From the NCBI GenBank assembly GCA_048268005.1, contig JBLWWJ010000003.1, forward strand, positions 383,502 through 447,501: a stretch of 64,000 nt of DNA, given 5' to 3'. This DNA is from Ancylomarina sp. (GTDB lineage Bacteria > Bacteroidota > Bacteroidia > Bacteroidales > Marinifilaceae). Made by a program: the position numbers and the translations under genes. Numbering within the stretch: position 1 is the first letter of the stretch; each line of letters starts with the position of its first letter. Shown in pieces: positions 9,701 to 58,500 of the stretch. Under the pieces are notes generated by a model. The model was not told the DNA's origin. It ran no database searches and was given only the letters and a program-made list of their open reading frames with translations.

Positions 9701-10396
9701 TTACATGAGAGCCTGTTCTTCAACCAGAACTTCCTCAGTTACAACTTTCCCGTCAAACAGATTAATCACTCTATGCGCGTAGCCAGCATCTTTAATGGAG
9801 TGTGTTACCATGATGATAGTTGTACCTTCTCTGTTCAGTTCTGTCAATAATTCCATCACTTCCTGTCCATTTTTAGAATCGAGGTTACCTGTAGGCTCAT
9901 CGGCCAGTATTAAGCCTGGATTAGAGACAACAGCTCGAGCTATGGCAACACGTTGTTGTTGTCCTCCTGAAAGCTGTTGAGGGTAGTGTTGTGATCGATG
10001 GCTCATGTTCATTCTATCAAGAACTTTATTCACCATTTCTTTACGTTTCTTGCTACTCAATCCCTGATAAACCAGTGGCATTTCAACATTTTCGAACACA
10101 TTCAGTTCATCAATCAAATTAAAGCTCTGGAATACAAATCCAACATTTCCTTTTCTCAAATCTGTACGCTGTCCTTCCTTTAAGCCAGCAACTTTGGTAT
10201 TATTAAAAGTGTACTGACCTTCTGAAGGGTTATCCAGCAAGCCCAGAATATTTAAAAGAGTAGATTTCCCACAACCAGAAGGTCCCATAATGGCAACGAA
10301 TTCACCTTTATTAATTTTTAAATTGATATTATTCAGAGCTAGAGTTTCAATTTCACTTGTCTGAAAAACCTTCGATAAATTTTCAATAGTAATCAT
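9701..10396 (-). CDS. ABC transporter ATP-binding protein (MacB/LolD-type ATPase)
   Basis: Walker [10 protein letters not shown], signature [14 protein letters not shown], Walker [14 protein letters not shown]-loop VTHS. Confidence 0.95.
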
Positions 10397-19566: not shown

Positions 19567-19584
19567 ATCCTAATATATGGTTTA

Positions 19585-19632
19585 ATTGATGAATTGTTAT
19601 ATTGCTGTATGGTATGATTACGAGATTGTTGA
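19585..19632. repeat. Six tandem 8-nt units ATTGNTNN (left flank of the four-helix-bundle gene)
   Basis: attgatga attgttat attgctgt atggtatg attacgag attgttga. This is the inverted complement of the array at 20069-20108. Confidence 0.7.
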
Positions 19633-19639
19633 AAGGGGC

Positions 19640-20023
19640 TTAAACCTTTAATTTCTCATTGGTAAATTTAACCAGATAATTAATCTCCTTGGGGAGCTCA
19701 CAAAATTCTTTATGAATAAATTGATACTGTTCCTTTGATATTAATCCTCTAATTAAAGATTTCTCGTTCCAGTCGATAGACTCTTTTAAAGATCCCATCG
19801 CATAACGATAGAATTTAATTTTATCCTTTTTATGATAGCGTCCATAACCTTCGGCTATATTTGCTGAAATAGAATCTATTGATCTGGCAAATTGCTTCCC
19901 AACCGTATCTTTTGCAAAATAATCCCATGAAAGAATAATATTCCAAATATAATTTGATAAAACAAAAGCACGCTTATAAGCATAAATCTTATCCAATTCT
20001 AGAAATTTATTTTCCATCATCAA
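19640..20023 (-). CDS. Four-helix-bundle protein (23S rRNA intervening-sequence protein family)
   Basis: 127 aa, all-helical, with motifs FARSIDSISANIAEGYGR and YRYAMGSLKE typical of this family. Confidence 0.8.
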   Translation of the reverse strand: MMMENKFLELDKIYAYKRAFVLSNYIWNIILSWDYFAKDTVGKQFARSIDSISANIAEGYGRYHKKDKIKFYRYAMGSLKESIDWNEKSLIRGLISKEQYQFIHKEFCELPKEINYLVKFTNEKLKV

Positions 20024-20068
20024 TTGTTTTAATAATTAAACCATTAATAATTACAACCGTCTAAAAAT

Positions 20069-20108
20069 CTAACAGTTTAACAATGTAACAGTATAACAAT
20101 TTAGCAAT
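20069..20108. repeat. Five tandem 8-nt units NTAACANT (right flank of the four-helix-bundle gene)
   Basis: ctaacagt ttaacaat gtaacagt ataacaat ttagcaat. It abuts the stop codon of the ABC exporter gene. Confidence 0.7.
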
Positions 20109-30899: not shown

Positions 30900-30930
30900 T
30901 TGCGTATAAAATAATTCCCTCCTATATTTG
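30900..30930 (+). promoter_or_regulatory. Bacteroidota-type promoter for the tRNA-Val pair
   Basis: TTG (30900-30902), a 20-nt spacer, then TATATTTG (30923-30930), which matches the TAnnTTTG -7 element. It lies 19 nt upstream of the first tRNA. Confidence 0.45.
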
Positions 30931-30948: not shown

Positions 30949-31023
30949 GGGCGATTAGCTCAGTTGGTTCAGAGCACTTGGTTTACACCCAAGGGGTCAT
31001 AGGTTCGAATCCTATATCGCCCA
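30949..31023 (+). tRNA. tRNA-Val (anticodon TAC)
   Basis: Cloverleaf: acceptor GGGCGAT/ATCGCCC, D-arm AGCTCAGTTGGTTCAGAGC, anticodon stem CTTGG/CCAAG with loop TTTACAC, T-arm ATAGGTTCGAATCCTAT. No encoded CCA. Confidence 0.93.
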
Positions 31024-31052
31024 CAATTGTATAACATACACACAGTCTTCTC

Positions 31053-31127
31053 GGGCGATTAGCTCAGTTGGTTCAGAGCACTTGGTTTACACCCAAGGGG
31101 TCATAGGTTCGAATCCTATATCGCCCA
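31053..31127 (+). tRNA. tRNA-Val (anticodon TAC), identical second copy
   Basis: Same 75-nt sequence, 29 nt after the first copy. Confidence 0.93.
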
Positions 31128-31140
31128 CACCGAGAAATAA

Positions 31141-31176
31141 AAAGGAAATTTTCATATGAAAATTTCCTTTTTTTAT
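31141..31176 (+). terminator. Intrinsic terminator after the tRNA pair
   Basis: Perfect palindrome aaaggaaattttcatatgaaaatttccttt followed by a T-run. Confidence 0.85.
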
Positions 31177-31580
31177 TTTACATCCTTCCCTGAATATGTT
31201 TTTGTAAAACGGAACCACTTACTAATAATCTCATCCCACTCCTTAAATCATAAACCTAAAACAAAAAAAAAATTAAGGCAGTTGCCTATAAAACAATTAA
31301 AGCTTGTTAAATATTTATGTCAAAGTGAAAAAGGAATTATCCATTTATCAAAATCTATATTTTTTTTGCATATATTTACATTCACACAAATAAAACGAGA
31401 ATTCATCATTATTTTAAATAACTTCGTCACATATTTAGAAGACATACTATAAGTTAGTTTTTCTACCAGATTATGTACAAAGTGTAAAAAAAACAGTGTT
31501 TTTTCTTAACTCACAACACATTAGTAGTGAGTTGAATACGAGCAGAAGCGAGTTGATTTTTATTTTTTTTTCATTTTATT

Positions 31581-31612
31581 GGGTTACTTTTTGCAAAAAG
31601 AAGGAATAAAGG
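31581..31612 (+). promoter_or_regulatory. Bipartite motif GGGTTACTTTTT-N10-GGAATAAAGG upstream of the sigma gene (candidate autoregulated alternative-sigma promoter)
   Basis: Both blocks and the spacing are identical to 39165-39196. The spacer contains the palindrome CTTTTTGCAAAAAG. The motif ends 10 nt before the ATG at 31623. Confidence 0.55.
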
Positions 31613-31622
31613 AGTAGATAAC

Positions 31623-32183
31623 ATGGATTACACAACAGAAGCAATTCTAGAAGGAATTGAAACGAGCAATAATGATGTATTAAATTACATCTATCGCAAG
31701 TTCTTTCCTGATACTTGCAGATTCGTTGAAAATAATAGTGGAACCAGTGAGGACGCACGCGACCTCTTTCAGGAGGCTATTATTGTAATTTATCGAAAGA
31801 TGAAGAAAGCACCCATTGTGCTGACTTGCAATTTTAGAACGTATATCTACTCTGTTTGCCGACTATTGTGGTTAAAAAAACTTGAGAAGAGGAATGATAA
31901 TCTTGATATTATCAAATCAGATGTGGTGTTAGACCAACAGGTTGACGATGTAAGTAAATCTTACGAGCAAACTGAAAAATACCGTCTGTATCAGAAGCAT
32001 TTTAAACGATTGCCTGCTGATTGTCAGGAAATAATGAAACTTTATCTTGAGAAAGTATCTGCAAAAGAAATTGCAAAAAAATTAGGCTTTGCCGGAGAAG
32101 ATTACGTGAAATCCAGAAAATATAAGTGCAAGCAAACACTTATAATGAATATTAAAAGCGATAATCAATTTACCGAAGTATGA
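31623..32183 (+). CDS. RNA polymerase sigma-70-family factor, ECF-like (regions 2 and 4 only)
   Basis: 186 aa. Region 2 is DLFQEAIIVIYRK. Region 4 HTH is LPADCQEIMKLYLEKVSAKEIAKKLGF. An ATGA stop/start overlap joins it to the next gene. Confidence 0.9.
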   Translation: MDYTTEAILEGIETSNNDVLNYIYRKFFPDTCRFVENNSGTSEDARDLFQEAIIVIYRKMKKAPIVLTCNFRTYIYSVCRLLWLKKLEKRNDNLDIIKSDVVLDQQVDDVSKSYEQTEKYRLYQKHFKRLPADCQEIMKLYLEKVSAKEIAKKLGFAGEDYVKSRKYKCKQTLIMNIKSDNQFTEV

Positions 32184-32952: not shown

Positions 32953-32987
32953 AAGGATTGTTCTAATAAGAACAATCCTTTCTTTAT
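32953..32987 (+). terminator. Intrinsic terminator after the sigma/anti-sigma operon
   Basis: aaggattgttc-taataa-gaacaatcctt hairpin followed by tctttat. Confidence 0.75.
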
Positions 32988-33107: not shown

Positions 33108-35984
33108 TTAAACGACTTCTAAATTTAATTTATCCAAATTTTGTTTCTTAGTCTTTTTAACTGAACGTTTCACTATGAAATAAATCCCACCCAAAAAAAG
33201 CGTAATTCCCAAAAGCAGCAGAATCTTATGAATCATACTAAACCTGAACAGGCTATCTGTATCACCAATGGCAACATAGCCAGACCAAAAGTATGGATGT
33301 GCTTTCAGGGCATCAGCCGTTTCTATATATTCCAGTTTAGCTCGCTGTAGGGCAGCATCTTTAGGAAAATTCTGAGACAAGTACTTATAAAATGAAGACA
33401 TTAAAGTAGATCCTGATAAATCTTCCACCGTCCAAAGTGTCATGATTAAGCTTGTACAGCCTGAATAAAAGAAACCCCTTGCTAAACTCATCACCCCCTC
33501 TCCTTTAAGAAATTTACCATCTCCCGAATTACAAGCACTCAAAACAACCATTCTGGCTTTAAGGTTCATATTATAAATCTCATGTGTATTCAATAAGCCA
33601 TCATTCAAACTATCATCGGTTTGAGTAAAAACCAATTTTGAATACATAGGATTGTTATCGTCTAATATTGTGTGCATCGCCAGGTGCAGGATATCAAAAC
33701 TACCGGCGTTTTTCTTGAAATTCGTTTCAGAAGCAAGTTCATCCGTATAAGTCTCACTTGCTAGTATCTTAGAAATATTCTCAACCTCTTCTTTAGCACC
33801 AGGTAAAGGAAAAAGATTGTTGTTACGAATATGTCTGGTTGTTAGAATTGAATCGCTCAATTTATTATAAGACGGAGCAAAAGCCAAATGCCTTTTTGAT
33901 GATGGTTTTGAAAGTCCTTTTTCAGGTCGTTTGTAAGCAATCGTAGCTGAGTTTTGATAACTGATAGGATTGTGACGTATCAGGTAATCCAAATTACGAT
34001 AATTCAAGCTCTCAGGGTCTCCTTTTTCCTTCAGTAATACACCAAAGGGCACATAGGCCAACTTGCCTTCAGGAACTACTATTAAATGCTTATTCAGAAT
34101 AATATCTTCATAAGGTTCGATTATAATTTGATAAAGCTTATGAGCTGCAGAAATATAGTCCTGGTGATATTTCATGCTATTACCAGAAAAATTATTGCTC
34201 TTTAAACTGGTTCGAATATTATTAATACTATTCTCAAACTCCCCATGTCTTAGACACACTTTTTTCATTTCGAAAAGGTCAGAACCTATAGCAAAAGAAT
34301 ACAAAGTGGAACCAGATAAAGCATATTCAAGTAATATTTCATCTTCTTTCAGCTGCTTTTGTACTTCATTTACAGAAATACTCGCATTATCATACTTTAA
34401 GACATAATACTCAGGATAATCCGTTTCAAAACGCTTTACCATTTGCTCATATTCAGTGTTCAATCCAAATAGAGTATGGCGCCAATTTGAGATTGAGTCT
34501 TGCATAGGATGAAACTGCTTTCTCTCCTGATAAATCTTATTTCGGTAATCAGCAATATCTTGTTTTAATTTATGCTCCAGATTTTGAAGCTTGATAGGGA
34601 TGCCTCCAAAAATTTTAGCATCTACATCATTTAAATAGTTACGCAAACTAGATGCCTTAGCTCTTTCTGAATAACTAAAAGCTTTCTCCTTGTAAATAGA
34701 ATTTAGACTCAGTTCATACAAATCAGCAGCGACTGAAATAGCAGAAGATAAAGTTTCATTTTCATTGGCACTCAATGCTAATTTTGATTCTTCATCCTGA
34801 TAAGCAATTTGAATTTGATCAATAATCTCAACACTCAAATCGAATGTATTCAGGGATGCTATCAGATACTTAATTTGTTTTGTTTCTCCATACAGCATTT
34901 GTAGGGTTGATGCCTTGTCATTTAAAATATCAATTGTCGACAACTGACCATCAATCTGTTGGATATTAGGATTCTGAGCAAACTCCTCTTCACAAAAATC
35001 ATAAGTGCTTGACACAAGCGCTTTTTGGTAGTACTCCAGAGCTTTAGTATAATTTTTATCCTTGAAATACAAGCCACCTAAGTTTTTCAAGCAATGAGCC
35101 GTATCAGGGTGCTTCAATCCAAACTTATCTAAATAAATTATAAACGATTTATTTAGATATTCTTCAGCCAAAGAATTATTATCTTTATCTAAATAAAATA
35201 TGGCATAATTCAAATAAAAGTTAGCCAAATCAGAATTACCATCACCATTGAATTTGATCGACTCATCAATACTCAATTTCAAATAGTGATTAGCCTCTTT
35301 ATCGTAGCCCAATATTCTATAGCAATTCCCAATATTAGTATAACTGGTTGAAAGGTCTGACACTTTCCTTACTTTCTTAATTTCTAAACCCTCGAATAAA
35401 TATCTGAGTGCATTATTATAGTCCTTATTGTTCTTAGAAGCCAGGCCAAGATTAGTGAAAATCCGACCTCTCCAACGTGAAGCTGAGGGATTCTTTTCAG
35501 TAATAAAAAGAGCTGCCTCATAAAATTTTTGTGCCTTTAAATTATCTTTCAAATGAAGATAAATATTACCCATATTCAGATAAATAGGCGCTAATTTACC
35601 AGATAACTCACCAAAGTGTTTTTTACAAATTACCTCTGCTGAATTCAGAAAAAACAAGGCGTTTTTATATTTTCCTAACCTGATAAGAGTAACTCCATAA
35701 TTGACTTTATACCGATAGAGAAGCTGAAAATCTTTCAATTCATTTTCGTCAATACTTGCTGCAGCCTGCTTAAAATAACTTTCTGCACCCTTATTATTTC
35801 GGGAACGCAATTCATTTACAGCCTTATTTAATAGAACAAGCAGGGAAGAGTCTGCGGATGTTATCACATCTGATTGAACGACTTGTGAAGGTATTGATGC
35901 TTTTACATGATAATTAAATCCACAAAACATTAAGAAGCATGCAGTAATCAGCAAATAAAGAAATGTTTCTTGTCTTTTTCTCAC
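33108..35984 (-). CDS. TPR-repeat CHAT-domain protein with signal peptide and C-terminal TM anchor (paralog 1)
   Basis: 958 aa with a GTG start. Signal peptide MRKRQETFLYLLITACFLMFCGFNYHVKA. About 400 aa of TPR repeats. CHAT domain retains the catalytic-type His (ILHLAMHT) and Cys (VVLSACNSGDG). C-terminal TM is ILLLLGITLFLGGIYFIV, followed by a basic tail. Confidence 0.9.
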   Translation of the reverse strand: MRKRQETFLYLLITACFLMFCGFNYHVKASIPSQVVQSDVITSADSSLLVLLNKAVNELRSRNNKGAESYFKQAAASIDENELKDFQLLYRYKVNYGVTLIRLGKYKNALFFLNSAEVICKKHFGELSGKLAPIYLNMGNIYLHLKDNLKAQKFYEAALFITEKNPSASRWRGRIFTNLGLASKNNKDYNNALRYLFEGLEIKKVRKVSDLSTSYTNIGNCYRILGYDKEANHYLKLSIDESIKFNGDGNSDLANFYLNYAIFYLDKDNNSLAEEYLNKSFIIYLDKFGLKHPDTAHCLKNLGGLYFKDKNYTKALEYYQKALVSSTYDFCEEEFAQNPNIQQIDGQLSTIDILNDKASTLQMLYGETKQIKYLIASLNTFDLSVEIIDQIQIAYQDEESKLALSANENETLSSAISVAADLYELSLNSIYKEKAFSYSERAKASSLRNYLNDVDAKIFGGIPIKLQNLEHKLKQDIADYRNKIYQERKQFHPMQDSISNWRHTLFGLNTEYEQMVKRFETDYPEYYVLKYDNASISVNEVQKQLKEDEILLEYALSGSTLYSFAIGSDLFEMKKVCLRHGEFENSINNIRTSLKSNNFSGNSMKYHQDYISAAHKLYQIIIEPYEDIILNKHLIVVPEGKLAYVPFGVLLKEKGDPESLNYRNLDYLIRHNPISYQNSATIAYKRPEKGLSKPSSKRHLAFAPSYNKLSDSILTTRHIRNNNLFPLPGAKEEVENISKILASETYTDELASETNFKKNAGSFDILHLAMHTILDDNNPMYSKLVFTQTDDSLNDGLLNTHEIYNMNLKARMVVLSACNSGDGKFLKGEGVMSLARGFFYSGCTSLIMTLWTVEDLSGSTLMSSFYKYLSQNFPKDAALQRAKLEYIETADALKAHPYFWSGYVAIGDTDSLFRFSMIHKILLLLGITLFLGGIYFIVKRSVKKTKKQNLDKLNLEVV

Positions 35985-36184: not shown

Positions 36185-39058
36185 CTAGACTATGTCTAAC
36201 TCATCTAAACTTTGTTCTTTAACCTTTTTAGATGTTGAGCGCTGCCAAACAAAGTATAGACCTCCAAACAAAATAGTCAGTCCCAGAAACATCAAAATCT
36301 TATGAATCATACTAAATCTGAATAAGCTTTCAGTATCACCAATGGCAACATAGCCCGACCAGAAATAGGGATGTGATTTCAAAGCATCAGCTGATTCAAG
36401 ATATTCCAACTTTGCTTGTTGTAAAGCGACATCTTTAGGAAAACTTTGAGATAAATATTTATAAAATGAAGACATTAAAGTAGAACCCGATAAATCTTCC
36501 ACAGTCCATAGTGTCATAATTAAACTTGGGCAACCAGAATAGAAGAAACCACGTGCTAAACTCATCACACCCTCTCCCTTAAGAAATTTACCATCTCCCG
36601 AATTACAGGCACTCAAAACAACCATTCTCGCTTTAAGATTCATATTATAAATTTCATGGGCATTCAATAAGTCATCATTCAAACTATCAGCGGTTTGAGT
36701 AAAAACCAGTTTTGAATACATCGGATTGTTATCATCTAAAATAGTATGCATAGCTAAATGCAGAATATCAAAACTCTCAGCATTATTTTTAAAATTCGTT
36801 TCTGAAGCCAAATTATCGATATAGGTCTTACCGTTAAATATTTTAGAAATATTTTCCACTTCAACTTTAGCGCCAGGTAAAGGATAAAGCTTGTTGTCGT
36901 GAGCTTGCCTGGTTACCAAAATTGAATCACTCACATTATCATAAGAAGGAGCAAAAGCTAATAGCCTTTTTTCTGAAGACATAGAGAATCCTATATCAGG
37001 ACGCTTGTAAGCTATTGTAGCTGAATTTTGATAACTAATCGGGTTGTGACGAATAAAATAATCTAAATTACGGTAATTCAAGCTCTCAGAATCTCCTTCT
37101 TCTTTTAGTAATACGCCAAAAGGTACATAAGCCAATTTCCCCTCAGGAACAATAATTAGGTGCTTATTCCCGATCACATCTTCGTATGGCTCAATCATAA
37201 ATTGATAAAGCTTATGTGCGGCAGAAATATAATCCTGATAATATTTCATGCTATTACCCGAAAAATCATTGGTCTTTAAACTGGTTCGGATTTTTGTGAT
37301 ACTTCTCTCCAATTCCCCTTTTCTGAGGGGCATTTTTTTCATTTCGAATAGATCAGAACCTAAAGCAAACGAGTATAAAGTCGAATCAGATAAGGCATAT
37401 TCAATCAGAATTTCATCCTCTTTCAGTTGCTTCTGCAGCTCTTCAACAGAAATACTCGCATTATCATACTTTAAGGCATAATAATCAGGATGATCCGTCT
37501 CAAAACGTTTCACCATTTGCTCATATTCAGCATTCAAACCAAAGAGAGTGTGACGCCAATTTGAAATTGAGTCTTGCATGGGATGAAGTTGCTTTCTCTC
37601 CTGATAAATCTTATCACGGTAATCAGCAATGTCCTGTTTCAATTTATGCTCCAGGTTTTGAAGATCGATAGGAATACCTCCAAAAGTTTTAGCGTCAACA
37701 TCATTCAAATAGTTACGCAAACTAGATGCCTTAGCTCGTTCCGAATATCTAAAAGCCTTTTCCTTATAAATTGATTCTCCCGTGACTTCAAACAATCTCG
37801 CAGCCACTTCAATTGCAGTAGAGAAAGTTTCATTTTCGTTAGCACTTAACGCCAATTTTGATTCTTCATCCTGATAGGCAATATGAATTTGATCTATAAT
37901 ATCAACACATAAATCAAAAGTCTCAAGCGATAATTTTAGATATTTAACTTGCTTGGTAGTGTCGTAAAGCTTAAATAAGGCGGAGCCCTTATCATCAATA
38001 ATATCAAAAGTAGTCAACTGACCATCCACCTGCTGAATACTTGGATTCTGATCAACTTCTTCATTATGAAAATCATAGGTGCTGGAAATCAGTGCATTTT
38101 GGTAATACTCTAGAGCCTTAGCATATTCCTTATCCTTAAAATATAAGCCACCTAAATTTTTCAAACAATGAGCCGTGTCAGGATGCTTCTTTCCAAACTT
38201 ATCCAAATAGATTGAGTAGGATTTATTTAGATATGCTTTAGCCAATACACTATTTTCTTTAGAAGCATGAAAAATGGCATAATTTAGATAAAAACTTGCC
38301 AGATCAGAATTCCCCTCTCCGTTCAATTTGATGGATTCCTCAATACTCCAATTTAAATAATGATCGGCCTCCTTATCATAGCACAATTCTTTATAGCAAT
38401 TCCCAATATTATTCAAACTTAAAGAAAGATCTTTAATATTTCTTTCCTTCTTTATTTCATAACCTTCTATTAAAAATTTTAGAGCATTATTATATTCCTT
38501 ATTGCTTTTATAAACTAAACCAAGGTTATTAATTATTCGATCTCTCCAGCGTGATGCCTCAGGGTTTTTCTCAACAATAAATAAGGCTGCCTCATAAAAT
38601 TTTTGAGCTTTTAAGTTATCCTTAGAATTAAAATAAATATTACCCATATTAACATATATCGGGGCTAGTTTTCCGGATGATTCTCCAAAATGATTCTTGC
38701 AAATAGTTTCAGCTGCATTAAAATTAATCAAAGCTTTCTTAAATTTCCCTAACCTAACAAGTGTGGCCCCGTAATTGACTTTATAGCGATACAAAAGTTC
38801 ATGATTCTTTAAGTCATTCTCATTTATGGTGTTTTCAGCTTGTTGGAAATAGCTCTCCGCCCCCTTGTTATTTCGGGAACGCAATTCATTTACGGCCTTA
38901 TTTAGCAGAACGAGCAAGGAAGAATCGGCAGATGTGGTCACATCTGATTGAAAAACGGGTGATGGCTTTGATGCTTTTGCATGAAAATTCGATCCACAAA
39001 AGATAAAAAAGCATAAAGAAATCAGCAGATATCGAAATATTTCTTGTTTTTTTTTCAC
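36185..39058 (-). CDS. TPR-repeat CHAT-domain protein with signal peptide and C-terminal TM anchor (paralog 2)
   Basis: 957 aa with a GTG start, collinear with paralog 1 over its full length. It has the same His/Cys motifs, signal peptide and C-terminal TM. Confidence 0.9.
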   Translation of the reverse strand: MKKKQEIFRYLLISLCFFIFCGSNFHAKASKPSPVFQSDVTTSADSSLLVLLNKAVNELRSRNNKGAESYFQQAENTINENDLKNHELLYRYKVNYGATLVRLGKFKKALINFNAAETICKNHFGESSGKLAPIYVNMGNIYFNSKDNLKAQKFYEAALFIVEKNPEASRWRDRIINNLGLVYKSNKEYNNALKFLIEGYEIKKERNIKDLSLSLNNIGNCYKELCYDKEADHYLNWSIEESIKLNGEGNSDLASFYLNYAIFHASKENSVLAKAYLNKSYSIYLDKFGKKHPDTAHCLKNLGGLYFKDKEYAKALEYYQNALISSTYDFHNEEVDQNPSIQQVDGQLTTFDIIDDKGSALFKLYDTTKQVKYLKLSLETFDLCVDIIDQIHIAYQDEESKLALSANENETFSTAIEVAARLFEVTGESIYKEKAFRYSERAKASSLRNYLNDVDAKTFGGIPIDLQNLEHKLKQDIADYRDKIYQERKQLHPMQDSISNWRHTLFGLNAEYEQMVKRFETDHPDYYALKYDNASISVEELQKQLKEDEILIEYALSDSTLYSFALGSDLFEMKKMPLRKGELERSITKIRTSLKTNDFSGNSMKYYQDYISAAHKLYQFMIEPYEDVIGNKHLIIVPEGKLAYVPFGVLLKEEGDSESLNYRNLDYFIRHNPISYQNSATIAYKRPDIGFSMSSEKRLLAFAPSYDNVSDSILVTRQAHDNKLYPLPGAKVEVENISKIFNGKTYIDNLASETNFKNNAESFDILHLAMHTILDDNNPMYSKLVFTQTADSLNDDLLNAHEIYNMNLKARMVVLSACNSGDGKFLKGEGVMSLARGFFYSGCPSLIMTLWTVEDLSGSTLMSSFYKYLSQSFPKDVALQQAKLEYLESADALKSHPYFWSGYVAIGDTESLFRFSMIHKILMFLGLTILFGGLYFVWQRSTSKKVKEQSLDELDIV

Positions 39059-39164
39059 TGTAGAAAAATAGTTTTAAAAAGCTGAATTTGTGACAAATAG
39101 GCCCTGCGAAATTATTCAAAACATAGGACATATTTATGTTTTTGAAAAAAAACTTTCACTTTCC

Positions 39165-39196
39165 GGGTTACTTTTTATCCAAAAAGGGAATAAAGG
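39165..39196 (+). promoter_or_regulatory. Bipartite motif GGGTTACTTTTT-N10-GGAATAAAGG upstream of the peptide genes
   Basis: Same two blocks and spacing as at 31581-31612. The spacer keeps the inverted repeat CTTTTT-atcc-AAAAAG. The motif ends 43 nt before the ATG at 39240. Confidence 0.55.
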
Positions 39197-39239
39197 GATG
39201 TAAAACGATTCCAATATTCACTTTATAATTTAAATAACC

Positions 39240-39474: not shown

Positions 39475-39553
39475 TCACCTACTAAAATAAAGTGGTCAAA
39501 TTCAAAAGCCACGATAACTCTCACAATAAAGTACCATTAGAAAAGATTCCTGA

Positions 39554-46290: not shown

Positions 46291-47745
46291 TTAAAGTTCT
46301 TTTCTTAATCGGGCAACAGGAATATTCAATTGTTCTCGATATTTAGCCACTGTTCTTCGAGCAATAACGTATGATTTCTCTTTCAGTATTGCAGCTAATT
46401 TATCATCGGTCAATGGTTTTTTCTTGTCCTCATTATCAACACACTCTTTTAGGATGTTCTTAATTTCACGCGTAGAAACTTCTTCACCTGTATCGGTTTG
46501 CAATCCTTCAGAAAAGAAATATTTCAATGAAAAAATACCAAAATGAGTTTGAATGTATTTCGAATTGGAAACACGTGAGATTGTAGAGATATCCAAAGAA
46601 GTTAACTCTGAAATATCCTTCAAAATCATCGGTTTTAATTTCTTTTCATCGCCTTCAAGAAAATACTCGTGCTGAAAATCAATAATAGCTTTCATACTTA
46701 ACATGAGTGTATTCTGACGTTGACGAATCGCATCAATAAACCATTTGGCTGAATCCAGTTTTTGCTTAACAAACATAACCGCATCTTTCTGCTCTTTCGA
46801 TTGATTTTCCTTATTATTAGAATAATCATTAAGCATATCGGCATAAGATCGACTGATATGTAAATCAGGAACATTACGCGAGTTTAAACTCAAGTTTAAT
46901 TCCCCATCTTGCTCTTCTAGAATAAAGTCAGGAATAATGGTTGGTGATGGCTTTGACATTGGATTTACAAAAGCTCCTCCTGGTTTAGGATTTAACTTTA
47001 AAATCTCATCTACAGCATATTTAAAATCTTCATCATCCAAATTCAATCGTTTCTGAATTTTCTCATAATGTTTACGAGTAAATTCATCAAAATATTTCTT
47101 TAGAATGATATGTGCATTTTTTACATCCGGGTTATGAGATCCCTTACGCTTAATCTGCAAAAGCAGACACTCCTGAAGATCACGTGCACCAATACCAGCC
47201 GGGTCGAAATCCTGAATCACATGCAGCAATTCTACCAATTCTTCAAATGTCGTATTTATACCTGTCGAGAATGCAAGATCATCAACAATACTATCGATAT
47301 CACGTCGCAAGTAACCATCTTCATCAATATTACCAATCAGATATTCAGCTAATGCAGCCTTTTCGGGAGTAAGAATCCTTAAACCCAATTGGGTAATTAA
47401 TTGCTCATGAAAAGTCGTTCCTCCTGAGAAAGGAATATCCTCGTGCTTATCATCCTTAGAGTAATTTTGTGCAGCCAGTTTGTAGGAAGGGGTATCGTCA
47501 TCGTCTATATAGTCTTCCAATGAAAATTCTTCCTGGTCTTTATCTTTTATTTCGTTATCGTCTTCCTGGTAATCATCCTGAATGGTTTCTTCACTACCTC
47601 CTTCATCAAGAACAGGATTTTCTTCCAACTCTTTTTTGATTCTTTCTTCAAGTTGCAGAGTAGGAAGCTCCAATAGTTTAATCACCTGAATTTGTTGAGG
47701 TGATAACTTTTGCAATAATTTTTGTTGTAGGCTCTGCTTAAGCAT
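46291..47745 (-). CDS. rpoN: RNA polymerase sigma-54 factor
   Basis: N-terminal Gln/Leu-rich region I (MLKQSLQQKLLQKLSPQQIQ), acidic region II, and the C-terminal RpoN box ARRTVAKYREQLNIP. Confidence 0.95.
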   Translation of the reverse strand: MLKQSLQQKLLQKLSPQQIQVIKLLELPTLQLEERIKKELEENPVLDEGGSEETIQDDYQEDDNEIKDKDQEEFSLEDYIDDDDTPSYKLAAQNYSKDDKHEDIPFSGGTTFHEQLITQLGLRILTPEKAALAEYLIGNIDEDGYLRRDIDSIVDDLAFSTGINTTFEELVELLHVIQDFDPAGIGARDLQECLLLQIKRKGSHNPDVKNAHIILKKYFDEFTRKHYEKIQKRLNLDDEDFKYAVDEILKLNPKPGGAFVNPMSKPSPTIIPDFILEEQDGELNLSLNSRNVPDLHISRSYADMLNDYSNNKENQSKEQKDAVMFVKQKLDSAKWFIDAIRQRQNTLMLSMKAIIDFQHEYFLEGDEKKLKPMILKDISELTSLDISTISRVSNSKYIQTHFGIFSLKYFFSEGLQTDTGEEVSTREIKNILKECVDNEDKKKPLTDDKLAAILKEKSYVIARRTVAKYREQLNIPVARLRKEL

Positions 47746-49592: not shown

Positions 49593-52500
49593 TTATTCAA
49601 CAATTAGGCGACCTCTATACAAGTTTTCACCTCGAATTTCAATGATATATTGCCCTGAAGCCAAATCACCTCGTTTTAATTCAAAACGATTACTATTAAT
49701 ATCATTCTCAATTAAAACCAAACGTCCATTCACATCGTAAACAGATAGACAATACGGACTGAAATTTGGATTATCAAACTCAATTCTAGATTTGATTTTC
49801 ATCGGATTGGGAAAAACAGTTAACTTTTTCACATTTGAATCAGGATCATCAATCCCTGTTATAGTTGACTTTGTAGTCAAATAATTCGAACGGGATACAC
49901 CATAATCACTATTATATGATTTTAATTGTGAAATATCACAGGTATACTCATTTTCTACCTCAAGTACATAGTAGAAATTCTCTACATTAGGAGGATTATT
50001 ATCGATATACTTAGATTCCGTATTTGATATTGATTCTATTTTCACCATCTCATCTACCGAAGTACCGCGGTAAATATTGTAGGTATTAAACTCAAATCCT
50101 TCGTACTTGTTCCAAATTAAATTAATCTCACCATTTATACCTTGATTAGCCTGTAAAAGCATCGTATGATGAACATCGCTTATTTGAGATTCAACACCAC
50201 AAACATCGGTAATGGAAATGGCGTAAGTATGAGAACGAGCAGATGGATTTGACTCCTCGTCAACAATTACACTTGTTTCTTCAATAGGAACATTCTTAAC
50301 CAGCTCCATAGATGAAACTGAATTGGCTTCCTTATAGATATTATAAGAAACAATGCCAAGGTCTTTTTGGCGTTCCCAAACAATCTCGTTTTTGTTATCG
50401 CTATTTACCGTCACTAGACAAAGTTGTTGATGCTGGTAAGTATTGAGAGTTTGTAAGTCAAATGTAGCTGTGGCCGAACACAAATTTTCATCATAAGCAC
50501 GAACAAAAAATTCTCCTGGATGTTCAGGATTAACGGAATTTCCGCCTTCTCCTGTAGACCATAGATAAGTATTGAAACCTTCGGTCGCTAAAAGTTCCGA
50601 CTTTTCTGGACAAAAATATTCACCGTGACTGGATGTGATTTCAACTGTTTGTGGCGTGTTCTTCTCAAGAATCGTTGCACTCGTTTCAGCTGTACAATCC
50701 ATAGCATCACTCACAACAACAGAGTATTCTCCTGCTCCGATTTTATATAAGCGATTACTGGTTGACTTTTCCTCGTCACTCCATAAATAAGTGTAAGGAA
50801 TTGTTCCTCCTGTAATTATTAAATCAATACCACCAGTATTTTCACCATCACATGAATTAAATATTTGTGATTTAACAGTAAACTCTTCAGGAGCATCAAG
50901 CTTGATACTGTCAATAGCTGTACAATTATTTGCATCGGTTACAGTAACATGGTAATATTTACCACCTACTAGCGTAGAAATAGTTGAATCACTAGTTTGT
51001 AGGTTGTCATCCCACTTAAATGCGAATGGTGCTTTTCCTCCAATAGGAGTAATTGTAGCTGAACCATCGTTTAAGCCGTAACACGAAACATTGCTCCAGT
51101 CGGTAAACTTAAGGTGAGGATCGTGTCCTACACTTACACTTGCAGTAGCAGTACAGTTGTTGGCATCTGTTAAAGTAACGGTATACTCAGCATCTTCGCT
51201 TAACCCTTCAACTCTTGCTGTAGTACTCGTACTGTTATCATCCCAAATAAAGGAATATGGTGCTGTACCTCCAGTTGGAATACAAAGTGCTGCCCCATCG
51301 GTTCTACCATTACAAGTCGTATTGAAACCTTCCACATTAGCACGTAATGGAACAGGATCAGTAATTACAACTTCTCTATCAGCAATTAACTCACCATTTG
51401 TATTGGTAACAATTAGATGATAAATTCCAGCTTTTAGGTTATCGAAAATATTATTATCCTGGAAAGATTCACCGTTATTTATTGAATATTGATACGGTGC
51501 AGTATCACCTGTTGTCGTAATGCTTAGGGAACGATTACCTTCACCAGAACAACCGCCATTATTAACAGCAACTAAAACTTCTTCATCAATACATTTTGTG
51601 TATCTGATAAGTCCTTTTATTCCTCCATACCAAATACGACCTTTCGCATCATCTTGAATACTTGTAATTGAATTGCCTTTAAAACCAGGTTCTTCAGAAT
51701 ATGAGACCCAATCGGTACCATTGAATTTTAGCATACCAGTATTACCGTAACCATCCCAATAGTTTTCGAAATAGCTAATCCAGATATTGCCATCAGCATC
51801 TTCCCCTATAGTATTAATTACTTGATTTGGATCTATACCATGTTGTTCTAGCTTGTAATAGGTCCACTCTTCGTTTTCGAGAATAGCATAGTGTGAATTG
51901 CTCGAGACCCAAATTCTATTTTTACTGTCAACAAAAATGTTATTCAAAGAATAGAAATCGTTACCCATATTCTCTTCAATAGTGTAGTGCGTGATATTAC
52001 TACCATCAAACTTCGAAATTGTTTTCTGATACTCGTTTTCATACTTAATCCAGATGTTACCTTGCGAATCGGCATCAATTGCCGAAATAGCGTTGGTTTT
52101 AAGGCCGTCCTCAGTCGAATAATTAATAATCTCATTACCCTTCATGCGAGTTAAACCTTCCTCATTGTAAATCATCCAAACGTAATCGTTGACATCGATA
52201 CTTAGTTTTTTAATCCAGTTAGATTTAAGACCATTAGCTATATCGTATTTGTCGAAAGTAGTACCATTATATTTGTAAACACCCTGGTCGGACGCTACCC
52301 ATACTTTAAGTTCTGAATCGGTATCTAAGTCATTTACTGAACCTTGGAAACCATCTTCATAATTGAATATTTTCCAGTTGTTCCCATCGAACTTTTTAAG
52401 GCTATTTTCCCAATTGGAACTACCTACCCACAAGTTCTTTTCTGCATCTAGCGACATACACTGAACACTTGCATTTGAACCATTTGCTTTGTGTAGTGTT

Positions 52501-55500
52501 GTCCATTGTTCATTAAAGTATTTACTAATACCATTATCGCCGTTTGAGAAACCTACCCAAATAGCACCAAATGCATCTTCACCAATAGCAGATACGTAAT
52601 TTGATGGTAGATCAACATCTTTAATATGAGATTGCCAAACACCTTCGGAGTAATGAAGCAAACCTTCGTGAGTTCCTACCCAAACGTCACCTTCTGTATC
52701 GCAGAAAATATCCGAAATATATGTACTAGGTACGTTTAAGCCAGTTTCAACTCGATTCCAGTTATCACCATCAAAATTAATTATTCCTGACTGACCTTCT
52801 CCAGTCCACGATGAACTCATCCAGATATCACCATTGATATCTTGAGTAATGTTTCTAACACCGCCAAGGCTTATGTTATTTTCATATTGGAAATTTTCCC
52901 AATCTTCACCTTGGGTTTTGCTTAAAATTTTATAACGCGAAACGCCAGAATTAGTACTTACCCAAACATAATCATCCTTATCTACAAATATGGATGAGCA
53001 ATGATCGTCACTTAATCCATCCTGATGTGTGAAGTTTGAGAATTTCTCACCATCAAATCGACTCACACCTTTATCGGTTGCAATCCATAGGTTACCATAG
53101 CTATCTTCAGCTATGCCCATAACATTGTTTCCTGCCAAGCCATCGGTTTCTTTGTATGGGTGCCACGATCTGCCATCGAACATATTTAGTCCTTTATTGT
53201 CGTAGTCGGCACCTAGCCAAATATTGCCATTTTTGTCTTTATGGATGGCGCTATAGCTAAAATTAGCGTTTATAATGTCCCAGTCTTTACCATTGTATGA
53301 TGTGAGCTCGTTTCCGGTAGAAAACCAAATGGTACCTTCAAAATCGGTTTCAATGGCTCTAATGTCTGTGCTATTCAGTTTAATTTCTCCATCTACCGCT
53401 GAGAACCCACATAGGTTTTCTTCTAGTAGAGGAAGAACTTTTAAAACAACTGAAGTCTGAGTCATACAAGCCTTATTATCGACAACGTTAATTTTATATA
53501 GCTTGTCGGCTTCGAGATTATTAACGTAAGGCGTTGTTTTCTCTATACCTTCCCAATAAAAAGAATATGGAGCATTACCACCAGTGGCCTGAATTGTGGC
53601 ATCACCATCAGCTAAACCTTGTCGTGATATGTTTGTACTGTCAATTACCAGAGCGATTAATTCATCAGGTTGAGTCACCCATGCGCTGTCTTTGTATACT
53701 TTACCATCAGTATCAGTTACTAAAACGTGATACACTCTATCAGCCTCACTCACCAAAACTTTAGAATCTTGAGTGGCATTCTCGTCATCCCAAAGATAAG
53801 TGAATGGTGCTTTCCCTGATAACATCTCGATTTCGATAGAACCATCATTACCACCATTACAAGAAATAGCACGAACAATTTTTCTAGAAATGGATTCATT
53901 TTCAAAAGCACCTAAATCGACTGGAGAACCTGTAGGAATAGATCTAGCTAAACCACCGAAATCGGTAGTTGGCATATGGTAATCTGTATCAAATACATTG
54001 ATTGATGCAATACCAGCGCCAACAGAAGGAGATATATCCAACAGGTGAAAATCACCATTTTCAGCATCTACAAAATATTCATCCCTATTAAAGTTTGAAT
54101 CTCCATAAGTGAAATTCTGTAGGTTACTTTCTTCACCAACAATACCTTTTTGTCCATTCTTAATATTCGAGTGATGAATTTCTATGCTTTTGCCATAACC
54201 ATCCATACTTGTTTCATAAGAAATTTCCTGAGATGAATTGTTTCGTAATATTGAATTCAACACCAATAATTTGCTATCACCATAACTCATTCGAACAGCT
54301 TGGTTGTTATTCACCACCGTTGAATTGATCAAAGCTACTTTAGCATTATTCTCCAGGTTTATTACTTCTGTCAAAATACCTGAAGCAACCAAGTTTTTAA
54401 ATGAGTAATTTCCTTGATTGATTCTTACCCCCTGTTGTCCACCTTTTAATTCAAGATTACTAAATACTACCTGAGTAGTTCCTTCCCAGTTACCTTGGGC
54501 AACAATAGCTGTTTGTCCAAAATTTTCAAAAGATAGGTGACCAAACTCTACATTACTGTATTGGTTCAAATAAACAGAACAATAGGAGTTTGACTTACCT
54601 TTAAAAGTAATGTTATCAATCACTGATCCATTATAAATATTTTGAATGCTTAAAGCGTCACCTTCATCTGTAGCAATATTATTCTCAAATTGAACATTAG
54701 TAACAGAAGCCTCAGAATCAGAAATAAACATTCCACCACCCCTACGTGCACGATTGTTTTTAACAATTAAATGATTTAAAGTTGGGTTCGAATTCCGAAT
54801 CGTAATTCCACCTCCATTATCGTATTCGTTCATCTCTGAACGACCATTCTGAATGGTTAATCCAATCAGTTTGGCATTTCGAGATTCTCCATTTAGGAAC
54901 ACTATAACGCTTCCTTTTTCACTACCATCCAATACTGTTTGAGAAATAAAACTTTTATCTTTATCTAAAATGTATCTGGAAGCCAGTGTTACGTTCTTAC
55001 CATTGAAACGGATATTTTCAGTATAAATACCGGGTTCAACAATAATGGTATCCAAGTCACAAGCACGATCAATCGCTGTTTGAATTAGTGACAGTGGCAA
55101 TTCTTCTGAACCGATATTTTCATCATCCCCTTCAGTAGAAACAAAATAATACTGCCCTTCACGAGAAAGGATTTCAATCTCCTCAACTAGTTCGCAATTA
55201 GAATCAGAAATAGTCAAAAAGTACTTTCCTGCTTTTAATCCGTTAAAAGTAGAATATGCATTAATTATATCCGCATTTTCAGCTTCAGGCCAGGCTTCAA
55301 CAGTTCTATTCTCATTATAGTCTGTACTGCTCAATCTGAGTTGATATGAAGAGTTTCCCATCATTTCATTTTGTACAGGTTTTCCGCCAGATATTTTCAC
55401 CTCTATTCGTCCAGAGATATCATTTACGGCTTCACATACATGTTTTATACTTGACGTAAATAGTAAAGGATCTTTAACCTCAATAGAACTCGAAATAATT

Positions 55501-58500
55501 GTTCCTTCAGTATCTGTTACGCTAACATTATATGTGCCTTCCTTCACATTAAACAGGTTCTGATCTGTTGAAGTAAACTCATCAGGACCAGTCCAAAGAA
55601 TACTCTTTACTTCTTTGTTGAAAACCTCCAAGGTGATATCTCCACCACATTCAGAAAGTTGGATGTTTAAATCTCCAACCGATTTTTCGTGTTCAATAGC
55701 TCCCAGGTCGGGTTTAGAATCGACAGGATTTGGTCTTGCTGTTCCATAAAGATCAGTTAGAGGAGTTAAATAAGTTACTCCATCAATTACAAATTCACTT
55801 ATTCCCGCACCAATGGCTGGTGAAGTTGAAACCAATCCGAAATCATTATTCGTACTATCAATAAATTCAATTGCATTTTCAAGATTACCTTCACCCCAAG
55901 TAATATCTAACTCCTCTGAATTAGATATACCATCATAAACAATTCCATCTAATCCTTTTTCTATCACAGAATAGTTGATACTAATCATGCGATCATAGTC
56001 CTGAGAATATGACGGAACAATTTGCTGATACTTATTTCCAGAAATAATGGTATTAAAAATATTGATATGGTTTTCTTGATATCCTTGATATATACCTGTT
56101 TGATTGTTAGCAATGGTACCATTTATAATATCTAAAGTTCCTTTCTCAATTTGAATCCCATAAGATTGATTTTTTATAATTAGTGGGTTTTCAAGAGTAA
56201 CTCTTGAATTTTGGGTCTCGTTACTGTAGATGTAAAGACCAGTTCCCTTATTCCCGATCAGCTGCAAATTAGAAATTAGCAAATCATTTTGAGCACTAAC
56301 TCTAAATGCATAATTCCCTTCATTATTTCTAATGATAATGTTATTTACTCCTGCAGATGAAACATTCTCCAGATAGAGTCCACTTCCCTCTTCATTTGCT
56401 TTATTGGATTCAATCGTAAGATTTTCCATGAAACATTCAGCAGAATTACAATAGATAGCACCACCTCGTCTGGCCTCATTATTCTTCAAAATCAAATCAC
56501 GTAATTGAAATTGACTTCCATTCCAATAGGACAAATTGATTCCTCCTCCAGATCCGTTATAATCCATGGAGGTTGATTTTCCATTTATAACAGTAAATCC
56601 AATAAAACCGGAAGCATCAATTTCTTTTTCCGAATCCTGTCCCGCGTATGCTGCTTCATCAAAATTGATATTTACAACAGAAGCTTTCTCCTGCCCATCA
56701 ATAATAGTGTTTGCTATATGATCATGGTTTCCATCCAAAAGAAATTGAGATCCTATTACAATTCTCTTGTTTATTGATAAATTTTCTAAATAAGTACCGT
56801 CCTTTACGATAATGGTATCCAAATCACAGGCATGATTAATTGCCGTCTGGATAGTTGCTAAAGGAGATTCCTCAGTTCCCAGATTCTCATCATCACCTTC
56901 AAGAGAAACAAAATGAAATCTAGTTTCTTTTGATAAAACTTCAATCTCTTCAACGAGCTCACAAGATGAGTCAGCTATCTTCAATATATACTTTCCGGCC
57001 TTTAAATTACCAAAGCTTGCATTCCCCAAACTCATCTCCCCATTTTCTGTATTGGGATAAATAGTAACCGTTCTTTGCTCGGAATAATCAATTCCACTAA
57101 GGTTCACTTGGTATTGTGATTCATAATCATAGTTCCTAGGTTTTCCACCTGCAACTTGAATTTCAAGCCTTCCGTTAGCTTCGCTGACTGCAGCACATAC
57201 ATGCTTGATATCTGAAGTAAATCGCAAAGGATCTTTCACCTCAATGGATGAAGTCACTGTAGTACCATCTGTGTCAGTTACGCTTACATTATAAACACCT
57301 TCTTTAACACTTACCAAATTCTGCTCTGATGAAGTAAACTCATAAGGACCAATCCAAAGAATACTCTTTACTTCTTTGTTAAAAATTTCAAGAGTAATAT
57401 CACCGCCACATTCTGCAAGTTGGATATTTAAATCTCCGACCCCCTGTTCATGTTCAATGGCACCCATATCCGGTTTTGAACCAGCAGGATTTGGTCTTAC
57501 TGTTCCAAAAAGATCTTTTTCTGGAGTTGAATAAGTTATACCATCAATAATCAGTTCATTGATCCCGGCTCCAATAGCGGGAGAAGTCGCAACTAAACTG
57601 AAATTATTCTGAGTCGTATCCACAAACTGTATGGCAGTTTCAAGATTACCTTCACCCCAATTAACTTCGGCACTACTCTGGCTATTACCGGCATCCATTG
57701 TTTGAATCCCCTCGAGCCCTTTCTCTAAAGCAGAATAATTTACATTTAAAGAGTGATCGTAGTCCTGAGAATAAGATGGTGCGATTTGCTGATATTTATT
57801 TCCAGAGATAATGGTATTAGAAATATTGATATGGTTCTCTTGATATCCCTGATATATACCATATTGATTATTAGCAATCGTACCATTAATAATATCTAAA
57901 GTACCTCTCTCAACTTGAATACCATAAGATTGATTTTTTACAATTAATGGATTTTCAAGAGTAACTCTTGAATTTTGTGTCTCATTACTGTAGATGTAAA
58001 GACCAGTTCCCTGATTCCCGACTAGCTGCAAATTAGAAATTAGTAAATCACTTTGAACATTAACTCTAAAAGCATTATTTCCTTCATTATTTCTAATGGT
58101 AATACTATTCACATGAGCAGATGAAACATTCTCCAAGTAGACACCACTTCCCTCTTCATTAGCTTTATTGGATTCAATAGTCAAATCTTGCATTAAGCAA
58201 GCAGAATAGTATGCACTGATACCACCACCACGTCGAGCCTCATTGTTTTTAACTATAAGATTCTTTAACTCGAATTTCGTTCCAGCCCAATAGTACAGAT
58301 TGATACCTCCACCTGTTTCATTTTCGTTGTATGAGGTAGACTTACCATTTTGTATAGTAAACCCTATCAAGCCGGATGAATATTCCATTCCATATGCCAA
58401 TCCTGTTGAAACTTTAACTGCTGTTTCCAACTGCTGTCCATCAATTATGGTTTTGGTAATATGATCTTTATTACCATCCAACAGAAATTCAGATCCGAGT

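Follow-up and report, generated by a model that had tools for sequence, protein, structure and literature searches.

What does a two-block motif do when it stands, with both blocks unchanged, ahead of two different sets of genes? The question is raised by a 64,000-nucleotide stretch of Ancylomarina DNA (contig JBLWWJ010000003.1, positions 383,502 to 447,501 of the forward strand), which we call the window and number from its first letter. One copy of the motif precedes the gene of a sigma factor of the extracytoplasmic function (ECF) type. The other precedes two genes for short peptides and one for a histidine kinase. By its closest relatives the source organism belongs to Ancylomarina (Marinifilaceae, Bacteroidota). 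We argue from the sequence comparisons that both copies are promoters read by RNA polymerase carrying this ECF sigma factor (31623-32183), and we put the probability of this at roughly 0.85. The -35 element would be GGGTTAC with the T-tract behind it and the -10 element would be GGAATAAA, 16 bp apart hexamer to hexamer. Transcription would start at a conserved purine 6 nt past the -10, at 31616 and 39200. The first copy would make the sigma/anti-sigma operon autoregulated, and through the second the same sigma factor would control both peptide genes and, very probably, the kinase gene as well.

The motif has the form GGGTTACTTTTT-N10-GGAATAAAGG. Site 1 (31581-31612, forward strand) reads GGGTTACTTTTTGCAAAAAGAAGGAATAAAGG and lies 10 nt ahead of the sigma ATG. 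Site 2 (39165-39196, also forward) reads GGGTTACTTTTTATCCAAAAAGGGAATAAAGG and lies 44 nt ahead of the ATG of the first peptide. With up to 3 mismatches allowed these two are the sole matches on both strands of the window, and 100 dinucleotide-preserving shuffles give an expected count of 0.00. A position weight matrix (PWM) built from 108 orthologous sites scores them at 44.2 and 40.1 bits, while the rest of the window stays at or below 5 and the shuffle maximum is 5.6. No third copy turns up in the window by a looser pattern, a 10-mer regular expression or the PWM. An earlier note, made from the letters of the window by eye, had described identical blocks at the same 10-nt spacing, an inverted repeat in each site (CTTTTTG/CAAAAAG at 31587-31600, CTTTTT-atcc-AAAAAG at 39171-39186) and no sign of a third copy. 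The DNA reads exactly so. Its remark that the surrounding sequences are unrelated stands only in part. Common to both sites are TTTCAYTTT, 5-15 nt 5' of block 1, long T/A tracts farther upstream, and a likeness on the 3' side that extends to a T-purine step 6 nt past block 2. The surroundings of both sites are AT-rich and of low complexity.

The distribution of the motif was examined in 80 loci from different species, retrieved with a profile of homologues of the sigma factor. They come from Ancylomarina, Marinifilum, Labilibaculum, Prolixibacteraceae and metagenome-assembled genomes (MAGs) of Bacteroidales, and the motif was scanned for within +/-10 kb of the sigma orthologues. The blocks are kept upstream of the sigma orthologues in Ancylomarina, Marinifilum, Labilibaculum, the Bacteroidales MAGs and one Prolixibacteraceae MAG. 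The sequence of the 10-nt spacer drifts between genera while both blocks stay. A. euxinus M1P (L001) has the window's motif unchanged at the peptide site and with 1 of 32 bases altered at the sigma site. Conservation in related genomes had been proposed beforehand as a check on the promoter idea, and the motif is clearly conserved in the orthologous loci. The consensus of 112 distinct sites is G-GGT[T/A]AC[C/T]TTTT, a W-rich spacer, and [G/A]G[A/g/t]AT[A/T/c]AA.

GGT[T/A]AC-N-TTT occurs 154 times when both strands of all loci are counted, and a GAATAA-like hexamer follows at exactly 16 bp in 123 of these. Other offsets from 8 to 39 have 0-13 occurrences each, save 37 bp with 27. Conservation among the 112 sites extends to positions outside the selection pattern: a G just before GGTTAC at -1 (96%), the fifth T at +10 (95%) and the A that follows the hexamer at +28 (100%). 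Farther on, +33 is a T in 82% of the sites and +34 a purine in 99%, a pyrimidine-purine start step at the canonical distance, since ECF promoters begin transcription about 6-8 nt past the -10. If that purine is taken as +1, then GGGTTAC falls at -35 to -29 and GAATAA at -12 to -7, as in a textbook promoter. ECF sigma factors need near-consensus promoters with spacers of 16-18 bp, and about half of them autoregulate (PMC7776599). The distance between hexamers falls in that range here and is identical at the two window sites. The motif also lies upstream of, and oriented to, the cognate sigma gene and other genes, and this is kept in orthologous loci.

We consider next which genes lie behind the motif. 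There are 126 sites with a -10-like hexamer, and the downstream gene encodes the sigma factor at 56 of them, a double-glycine (GG) leader peptide at 43, a soluble kinase at 8 and something else at 19. Most of these 19 are likewise oriented toward a gene. The motif is about 41 nt ahead of the sigma ATG (56 sites) and 24-71 nt, mostly 36-53, ahead of the peptide gene (43 sites). The kinase orthologue is preceded by its own copy in 8 other genomes. The remaining targets include a gene for a 65-residue protein resembling helix-turn-helix (HTH) proteins at 5 Marinifilaceae sites (L006:1224(-), L011:800(-), L015:1371(-), L020:1855(-) and L023:1381(-)). It lies about 8-9 kb from the sigma gene in those five genomes and has a good copy of the motif. 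Others are secreted proteins of about 410 residues, divergent from the kinase (L058:16183(-), L064:16211(-) and L066:16594(-)), and a 120-residue LytTR-like protein (L020:4250(-)). The window holds no homologue of the HTH-like, LytTR-like or 410-residue secreted proteins.

The arrangement of sigma factor, anti-sigma, TPR-CHAT protease and peptide genes is syntenic across these families, rearranged versions included. Loci with a stand-alone sigma homologue, lacking the module of anti-sigma, CHAT and peptide genes, have no motif. Among 44 fully covered loci, 27 have both CHAT and a motif-driven peptide gene, 9 have neither, 8 have CHAT alone and 0 have the peptide alone; these are raw locus counts, not corrected for phylogeny. 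The motif-driven peptide gene is the most constant target, present in 27/35 loci with CHAT and 0/9 without. Across about 70 genomes the motif is identical or conserved in sequence, fixed in geometry, constant in orientation and associated with sigma, peptide and kinase genes. From this we infer that this sigma factor is the reader, where transcription starts, that the kinase gene is co-transcribed and that the membrane protein encoded behind the sigma gene is an anti-sigma factor. The earlier note had taken the blocks for ECF -35 and -10 elements, the sigma gene for autoregulated and the peptide/kinase operon for part of the regulon. All three proposals gain strong support from phylogenetic footprinting: ahead of sigma orthologues and of GG-leader peptide genes in several families, the blocks keep their sequence, spacing and orientation.

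The sigma protein matches the TIGR02937 model for sigma70-ECF at 63.5 bits (cutoff 42.9). Its matches to Pfam Sigma70_r2 and r4_2 are weak and just below cutoff, and it does not reach the cutoff of any specific sigma subfamily in NCBIfam. A search of the PDB with the single sequence found nothing. The profile of its family matches SigW (5wuq) over its full length, and SigW, SigH and AlgU-type structures over residues 4-178. With 186 residues, only the sigma2 and sigma4 regions and a match to the ECF model, it belongs with the ECF (group IV) sigma factors. The gene behind it begins within the sigma stop codon (ATGA) and is kept directly behind the sigma gene in most loci. No anti-sigma domain model in Pfam, NCBIfam or the PDB matches its product, and PDB sequence searches with this protein and with the CHAT proteins returned generic TPR matches only. 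Its context makes it a putative anti-sigma factor. A hairpin behind it (32953-32980) is the likely end of the sigma operon. When the sigma factor is freed by this membrane-bound TPR protein, more sigma and anti-sigma would be made and the peptides and the kinase would be switched on. Such release and amplification by the sigma factor is well supported, as a predicted mechanism, by the sequence and by its comparison across genomes. There is no terminator-like site between the peptide genes and the kinase gene (39475-39553), and the kinase gene is probably co-transcribed with them.

The housekeeping -7 box of Bacteroidetes, TAnnTTTG, is found in neither of the two motif-bearing intergenic regions. 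A scan for E. coli-type sigma-70 promoters gave 38 sites where 42 are expected and is uninformative. The peptide promoters of Marinifilaceae have TTTCAYTTT and T(5-9)/A(7-8) tracts conserved on their upstream side. The segment of this kind at 39140-39164 resembles an UP element and may act as one.

Several points count against our conclusion. The motif is assigned to this sigma factor by co-localisation, and its specificity for the locus holds for the +/-10 kb that were scanned. Its elements, -35 GGTTAC and -10 GAATAA, differ from the textbook ECF elements GGAAC and CGTC. A leader of 7 nt, as predicted for the sigma mRNA, is unusually short. The sigma gene has no motif of its own in Tangfeifania-like and Sunxiuqinia-like genomes; in the Tangfeifania-like ones it follows the CHAT gene, and an operon of peptide and anti-sigma genes has the motif. 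In a clade of 'Porphyromonadaceae' MAGs a reading frame is open through the sigma-proximal motif from a TTG or ATG 4 nt upstream of GGTTAC. One member (L032) has ATG there, and synonymous changes keep the amino acids and destroy the motif, so the copy may be coding in that clade. In the window an in-frame stop (TAG, 31614-31616) makes the motif of site 1 non-coding.

Both of the unusual groups deserve a description. In Sunxiuqinia (L053 10756-12707; also L049, L050, L052, L054, L057 and L061) the motif is found downstream of the sigma gene. It is followed by a fragment, a fossil resembling the 5' end of the sigma gene (ATGATAAAATACACGAACGAAGAG), and then by an anti-sigma gene enlarged to 511 amino acids with its acidic N-terminal module repeated 3-4 times. 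A sigma gene without the motif and an anti-sigma gene with it would mean negative, not positive, feedback. The 'Porphyromonadaceae' clade consists of L025-L047 and L069, with the motif at about 9960-10000 in locus coordinates. The TTG-opened frame (MGLPF...) runs into the sigma gene, the usual start position of the sigma gene lacks a start codon in L041 and L047, and the databases hold 191-residue and 203-residue versions of the sigma proteins of the clade.

We also scanned metagenomes for GGGTTACYTTTT-N11-GRAATWAA. The 23 matches are at about chance level by a rough estimate; they do not extend the regulon, and the scan is chiefly of use as a negative control. None of the 23 adjoins a sigma or GG-peptide gene, and only one looks genuine. 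That one is on a TARA ocean contig (L088 6674-7948), where a convincing copy, GGGTTACTTTTT-N10-AGGAATAAAGGGGTA, has its predicted start 31 nt before a gene for a 402-residue lipoprotein-like protein. The fetched part of the contig has no sigma gene, and the site may be a member of the regulon located elsewhere in a genome.

The rival that survives best keeps the site and changes its reader, and we consider it improbable. One can imagine a promoter or activator site read by another ECF sigma factor, or by a response regulator that partners the kinase at 39554. Bacteroidota encode many ECF sigma factors (PMC7826278), which counts for this idea, as does the assignment of the adjacent sigma factor by co-localisation. 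The genes driven by the motif also include those of the kinase, the LytTR-like protein and the 65-residue HTH protein. However, the motif goes with the orthologues of this sigma factor through several families and through rearrangements and is not seen at loci that lack the module, and the kinase and HTH genes are missing from many loci that have the motif. The fixed 16-bp spacing, together with the start step 6 nt past block 2, is the geometry of a promoter and does not suit an activator site.

Nearly as improbable, and a shade weaker, is the idea that the dyad (CTTTTT...AAAAAG) is the operator of a dimeric repressor or activator, instead of the sigma site or besides it. Both window sites do have an inverted repeat of 6-7 bp. 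The best stem has a mean of 6.0 at the 12 distinct sigma and peptide sites of Ancylomarina, where shuffled spacers give 4.4-4.8, and AAAAAG just 5' of the -10 is kept while the adjacent spacer bases vary. This pattern is local. For the whole set of 108 distinct sites the mean is 4.44 bp, and shuffling the spacer gives 4.20. In distant clades it equals the control, and there is slight enrichment in Marinifilum and Labilibaculum. T-runs or mixed W sequence replace the A-run in the distant clades, so it does not pair with the T-tract there, and since the dyad is gone it is not the conserved feature. In the window the conserved blocks GGGTTAC and GGAATAA show no mutual symmetry, and the motif is strictly directional relative to the downstream gene. 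A palindromic operator should be recognizable by a dyad conserved across orthologous sites, and here the T-run after the -35 belongs to the conserved block while the complementary A-run does not. The earlier note had offered a dimeric-regulator operator as its other explanation, and this is not supported, with complementarity above control only in Ancylomarina and weakly in Marinifilum and Labilibaculum. The dyad is best explained by an A-tract that is particular to the lineage and lies in a spacer rich in AT. A second, genus-specific regulator may bind it in Ancylomarina.

It is very unlikely that the motif acts as RNA, whether as a hairpin, attenuator, terminator or ribosome-binding site. 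AAGGAG at 31609-31614 is 8 nt ahead of the sigma ATG, a Shine-Dalgarno-like spacing, and a CUUUUU/AAAAAG hairpin can be drawn. But the RNA folds no better than shuffles (z = -0.89 and -0.29), no Rfam family matched, hairpin potential is not conserved and the predicted start is downstream of the motif. Bacteroidota make little use of Shine-Dalgarno sequences, which also counts against it. The G-rich tail of block 2 is 44 nt from the peptide ATG, so at the peptide promoter this tail cannot serve for ribosome binding. Finally, the AT-rich, low-complexity surroundings might suggest a chance match or a functionless remnant of a recent local duplication, but this is next to impossible with zero matches in the shuffles, the same two gene classes in distant families, and sites 1 and 2 each independently conserved in about 20 Marinifilaceae genomes with different spacers, which excludes both.

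Features of the proposed regulon and its neighbours, in window coordinates
Feature	Position	Strand	Remarks
Predicted promoter, sigma/anti-sigma operon	31581-31616	+	-35 GGGTTAC 31581-31587, T-tract to 31592; -10 GGAATAAA 31603-31610
Predicted +1, sigma operon	31616 (A)	+	7-nt leader to ATG 31623
ECF-type sigma factor, 186 amino acids	31623-32183	+	sigma2 and sigma4 regions only
Putative anti-sigma factor, 247 amino acids	32180-32923	+	acidic N-terminal region, one transmembrane helix, periplasmic TPR domain
Terminator-like hairpin, 12 bp	32953-32980	+	after the anti-sigma gene
TPR-CHAT caspase-like protease, paralogue 1	33108-35984	-	CHAT E=1.4e-59 and TPRs
TPR-CHAT protease, paralogue 2	36185-39058	-	CHAT E=3.1e-58; divergent from the peptide promoter
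UP-element-like segment	39140-39164	+	T-tract/A-tract and CTTTCACTTTCC directly 5' of the -35; counterpart at the sigma site about 31556-31580
Predicted promoter, peptide-peptide-kinase operon	39165-39200	+	-35 GGGTTAC 39165-39171, T-tract to 39176; -10 GGAATAAA 39187-39194
Predicted +1, peptide operon	39200 (G)	+	40-nt leader to ATG 39240
Double-glycine-leader peptide 1, 33 amino acids	39240-39341	+	leader MENFEILNAEQLLEVKGG, core HNELTQKDNVEDCIV
Double-glycine-leader peptide 2, 33 amino acids	39373-39474	+	leader MNNFEILNAEQLLEVKGG, core HNELTQKDNVEDCIV
Soluble histidine kinase, HisKA/HATPase, 275 amino acids	39554-40381	+	no sensor or transmembrane domain
C39-peptidase ABC transporter (PCAT), 735 amino acids	20109-22316	-	Peptidase_C39, ABC_membrane, ABC_tran
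HlyD-family protein, 435 amino acids	18259-19566	-	HlyD_3

The two TPR-CHAT paralogues (957/958 amino acids) each have an N-terminal signal-like segment and a C-terminal transmembrane helix. The motifs of the catalytic dyad are intact in both, with His in HLAMHT and Cys in LSACNSG as in paralogue 1. A CHAT gene is kept beside the sigma/anti-sigma pair in orthologous loci. The duplication is recent, since the tandem pair is seen in the window and in A. euxinus (L001) and the other covered Ancylomarina loci, L003-L007, have one copy each. Within the window the motif precedes neither the two CHAT genes nor the PCAT operon.

The peptides can be written jointly as M[E/N]NFEILNAEQLLEVKGG followed by HNELTQKDNVEDCIV, their cores being identical. 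The window peptide matches the Pfam Bacteriocin_IIc leader model with E=2e-4 at 21.6 bits, below the cutoff of 27.1. Four orthologues are above the cutoff of TIGR01847 (17.7-19.2 bits against 15.7), and one is above that of Pfam ComC (23.0 against 20.4). The leader pattern F-E-x-L-x-x-x-x-L-x-x-[IV]-[KR]-G-G is conserved. They are double-glycine-leader peptides by a leader that ends in GG and by the matches of their orthologues to leader models, the window peptides themselves scoring below cutoff. The predicted mature peptides have 10-26 residues, are acidic with hydrophobic ends, and differ between species. In another locus (L059 14282, forward strand) a GG-leader peptide gene, MKTLRSIF...TVRGG followed by QDEDLWAPPIPVTPPPPPKN, lies beside the CHAT gene, and the motif was not detected in that locus.

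Such peptides call for a dedicated C39-peptidase ABC transporter, and the window has a PCAT with an HlyD-family partner about 9-13 kb from the sigma gene. The pair (18259-22316) is a candidate exporter and processor of the GG-leader peptides. Its orthologues lie directly downstream of a motif-driven peptide gene in 8 genomes of another clade, and this synteny ties the peptides to export with leader cleavage. A small open reading frame (ORF) resembling a four-helix bundle (19640-20020) lies between the transporter and HlyD genes.

Elsewhere in the window, two identical tandem tRNA-Val(TAC) genes (30949-31024 and 31053-31128) lie ahead of the sigma region. They are preceded by a TATATTTG box at 30923, which resembles the Bacteroidetes housekeeping -7 element (TAnnTTTG), and followed by a 15-bp hairpin (31139-31172). 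A sigma-54-dependent response regulator and PAS histidine kinase pair (12089-14801, forward strand) and an ORF that reads as rpoN-like (46291-47745, reverse strand) are unrelated to the motif. The ORF at 49593-61367 on the reverse strand encodes 3,924 amino acids and has an N-terminal signal-like sequence.

What could this locus be for? We suggest, as a tentative and rather doubtful scenario, that it is a self-contained autoinducing peptide signalling circuit, a form of quorum sensing in Bacteroidota based on an ECF sigma factor. The sigma factor would drive its own gene and the GG-leader peptide genes, and the C39 ABC transporter and HlyD pair would cleave and export the peptides. The periplasmic receptor of the short, acidic, species-variable peptide would be a TPR domain, either that of the anti-sigma-like protein or that of TPR-CHAT. 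TPR-CHAT would then act as a site-1 protease, cutting the periplasmic domain of the anti-sigma-like protein and freeing the sigma factor. The soluble kinase would pass this state to further targets. We are led to this idea by the positive-feedback wiring, the co-occurrence of peptide and CHAT genes, the exporter synteny and the precedent of DdvA (see below), and also because the peptide cores diverge quickly while the leaders are conserved.

The element itself would be of an ordinary kind, an autoregulated ECF promoter. The module of sigma factor, TPR-CHAT and GG peptides is undescribed in the literature we found. Our search returned no description of this sigma family, of CHAT with ECF in Bacteroidota, or of ECF-controlled GG peptides. 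The result is a predicted promoter, sharply defined and open to test, for a so far uncharacterised family of ECF sigma factors in Marinifilaceae, Prolixibacteraceae and related Bacteroidales. Its core regulon can be defined by sequence as the sigma/anti-sigma operon, the GG-leader peptides and the soluble kinase; in some genomes the small HTH protein, secreted proteins and the peptide exporter are added. The wiring joins ECF sigma signalling, periplasmic TPR-CHAT and exported GG-leader peptides, each of them poorly understood in Bacteroidota. Should the peptides be the signal, this would be peptide-based cell-cell communication in Bacteroidota, of which the literature we searched holds no description. 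In that case TPR-CHAT and ECF sigma factors would be combined in a second way, with the parts split, besides that of DdvA-DdvS. An orthogonal expression switch for Bacteroidota might be built from the 36-nt promoter, which is nearly invariant, and its cognate sigma factor.

It remains to compare the locus with known systems. It shares a phylum and an AT-rich upstream region with the Bacteroidetes sigmaA promoter (-33 TTTG / -7 TAnnTTTG), but neither site has TAnnTTTG and the -35 is G-rich. In promoter form it resembles the autoregulated ECF (group IV) promoters of E. coli sigmaE and of B. subtilis sigmaW and sigmaX. These too have two elements, -35 and -10, held rigidly 16 bp apart, a -35 that ends in AC before a T-tract, a copy ahead of the sigma/anti-sigma operon with a small local regulon, and near-consensus sites only; SigW is also the protein matched, as noted above, by the profile of the sigma family. 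The elements differ, being GGGT[T/A]ACYTTTT / GRAATWAA here in place of GGAAC / CGTC or TCAAA. The regulon here holds peptides and a kinase, not envelope-stress genes.

The peptides recall ComC and BlpC of Gram-positives with their PCAT exporters ComAB and BlpAB. Both have a short GG-leader precursor, a C39 exporter and accessory protein nearby, fast-diverging cores, and a precursor gene controlled by an adjoining regulator in positive-feedback wiring. In place of an RRNPP protein, or of a membrane histidine kinase with its response regulator, an ECF sigma/anti-sigma pair with TPR-CHAT is the regulator here. The soluble kinase of this locus is an output and not the obvious receptor. The predicted peptide cores here have 10-26 residues and are acidic.

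DdvS-DdvA of Myxococcus xanthus is the nearest described parallel for the regulatory module. There a periplasmic TPR-CHAT is fused to the anti-sigma factor and is proposed to be its own site-1 protease, and such fused anti-sigmas are reported only from Myxococcota and one Comamonas (PMC11506125). The two systems have in common an ECF sigma factor, a TPR-CHAT with a His-Cys dyad, a single-pass membrane anti-sigma (putative here) and several sigma-dependent promoters (predicted here) on neighbouring genes. They differ in that TPR-CHAT is separate here, as two paralogues with a C-terminal transmembrane anchor, and the anti-sigma-like protein has a small TPR domain only, with no zinc-binding (CHCC) motif read in its N-terminal region. 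The targets here are GG-leader peptides and a kinase, not CBASS or CRISPR. A DdvA-type protein combines a zinc anti-sigma domain, a transmembrane helix and a periplasmic TPR-CHAT in a single polypeptide, and here separate genes encode the parts. By analogy this locus may work like DdvA even though it is not a member of that family.

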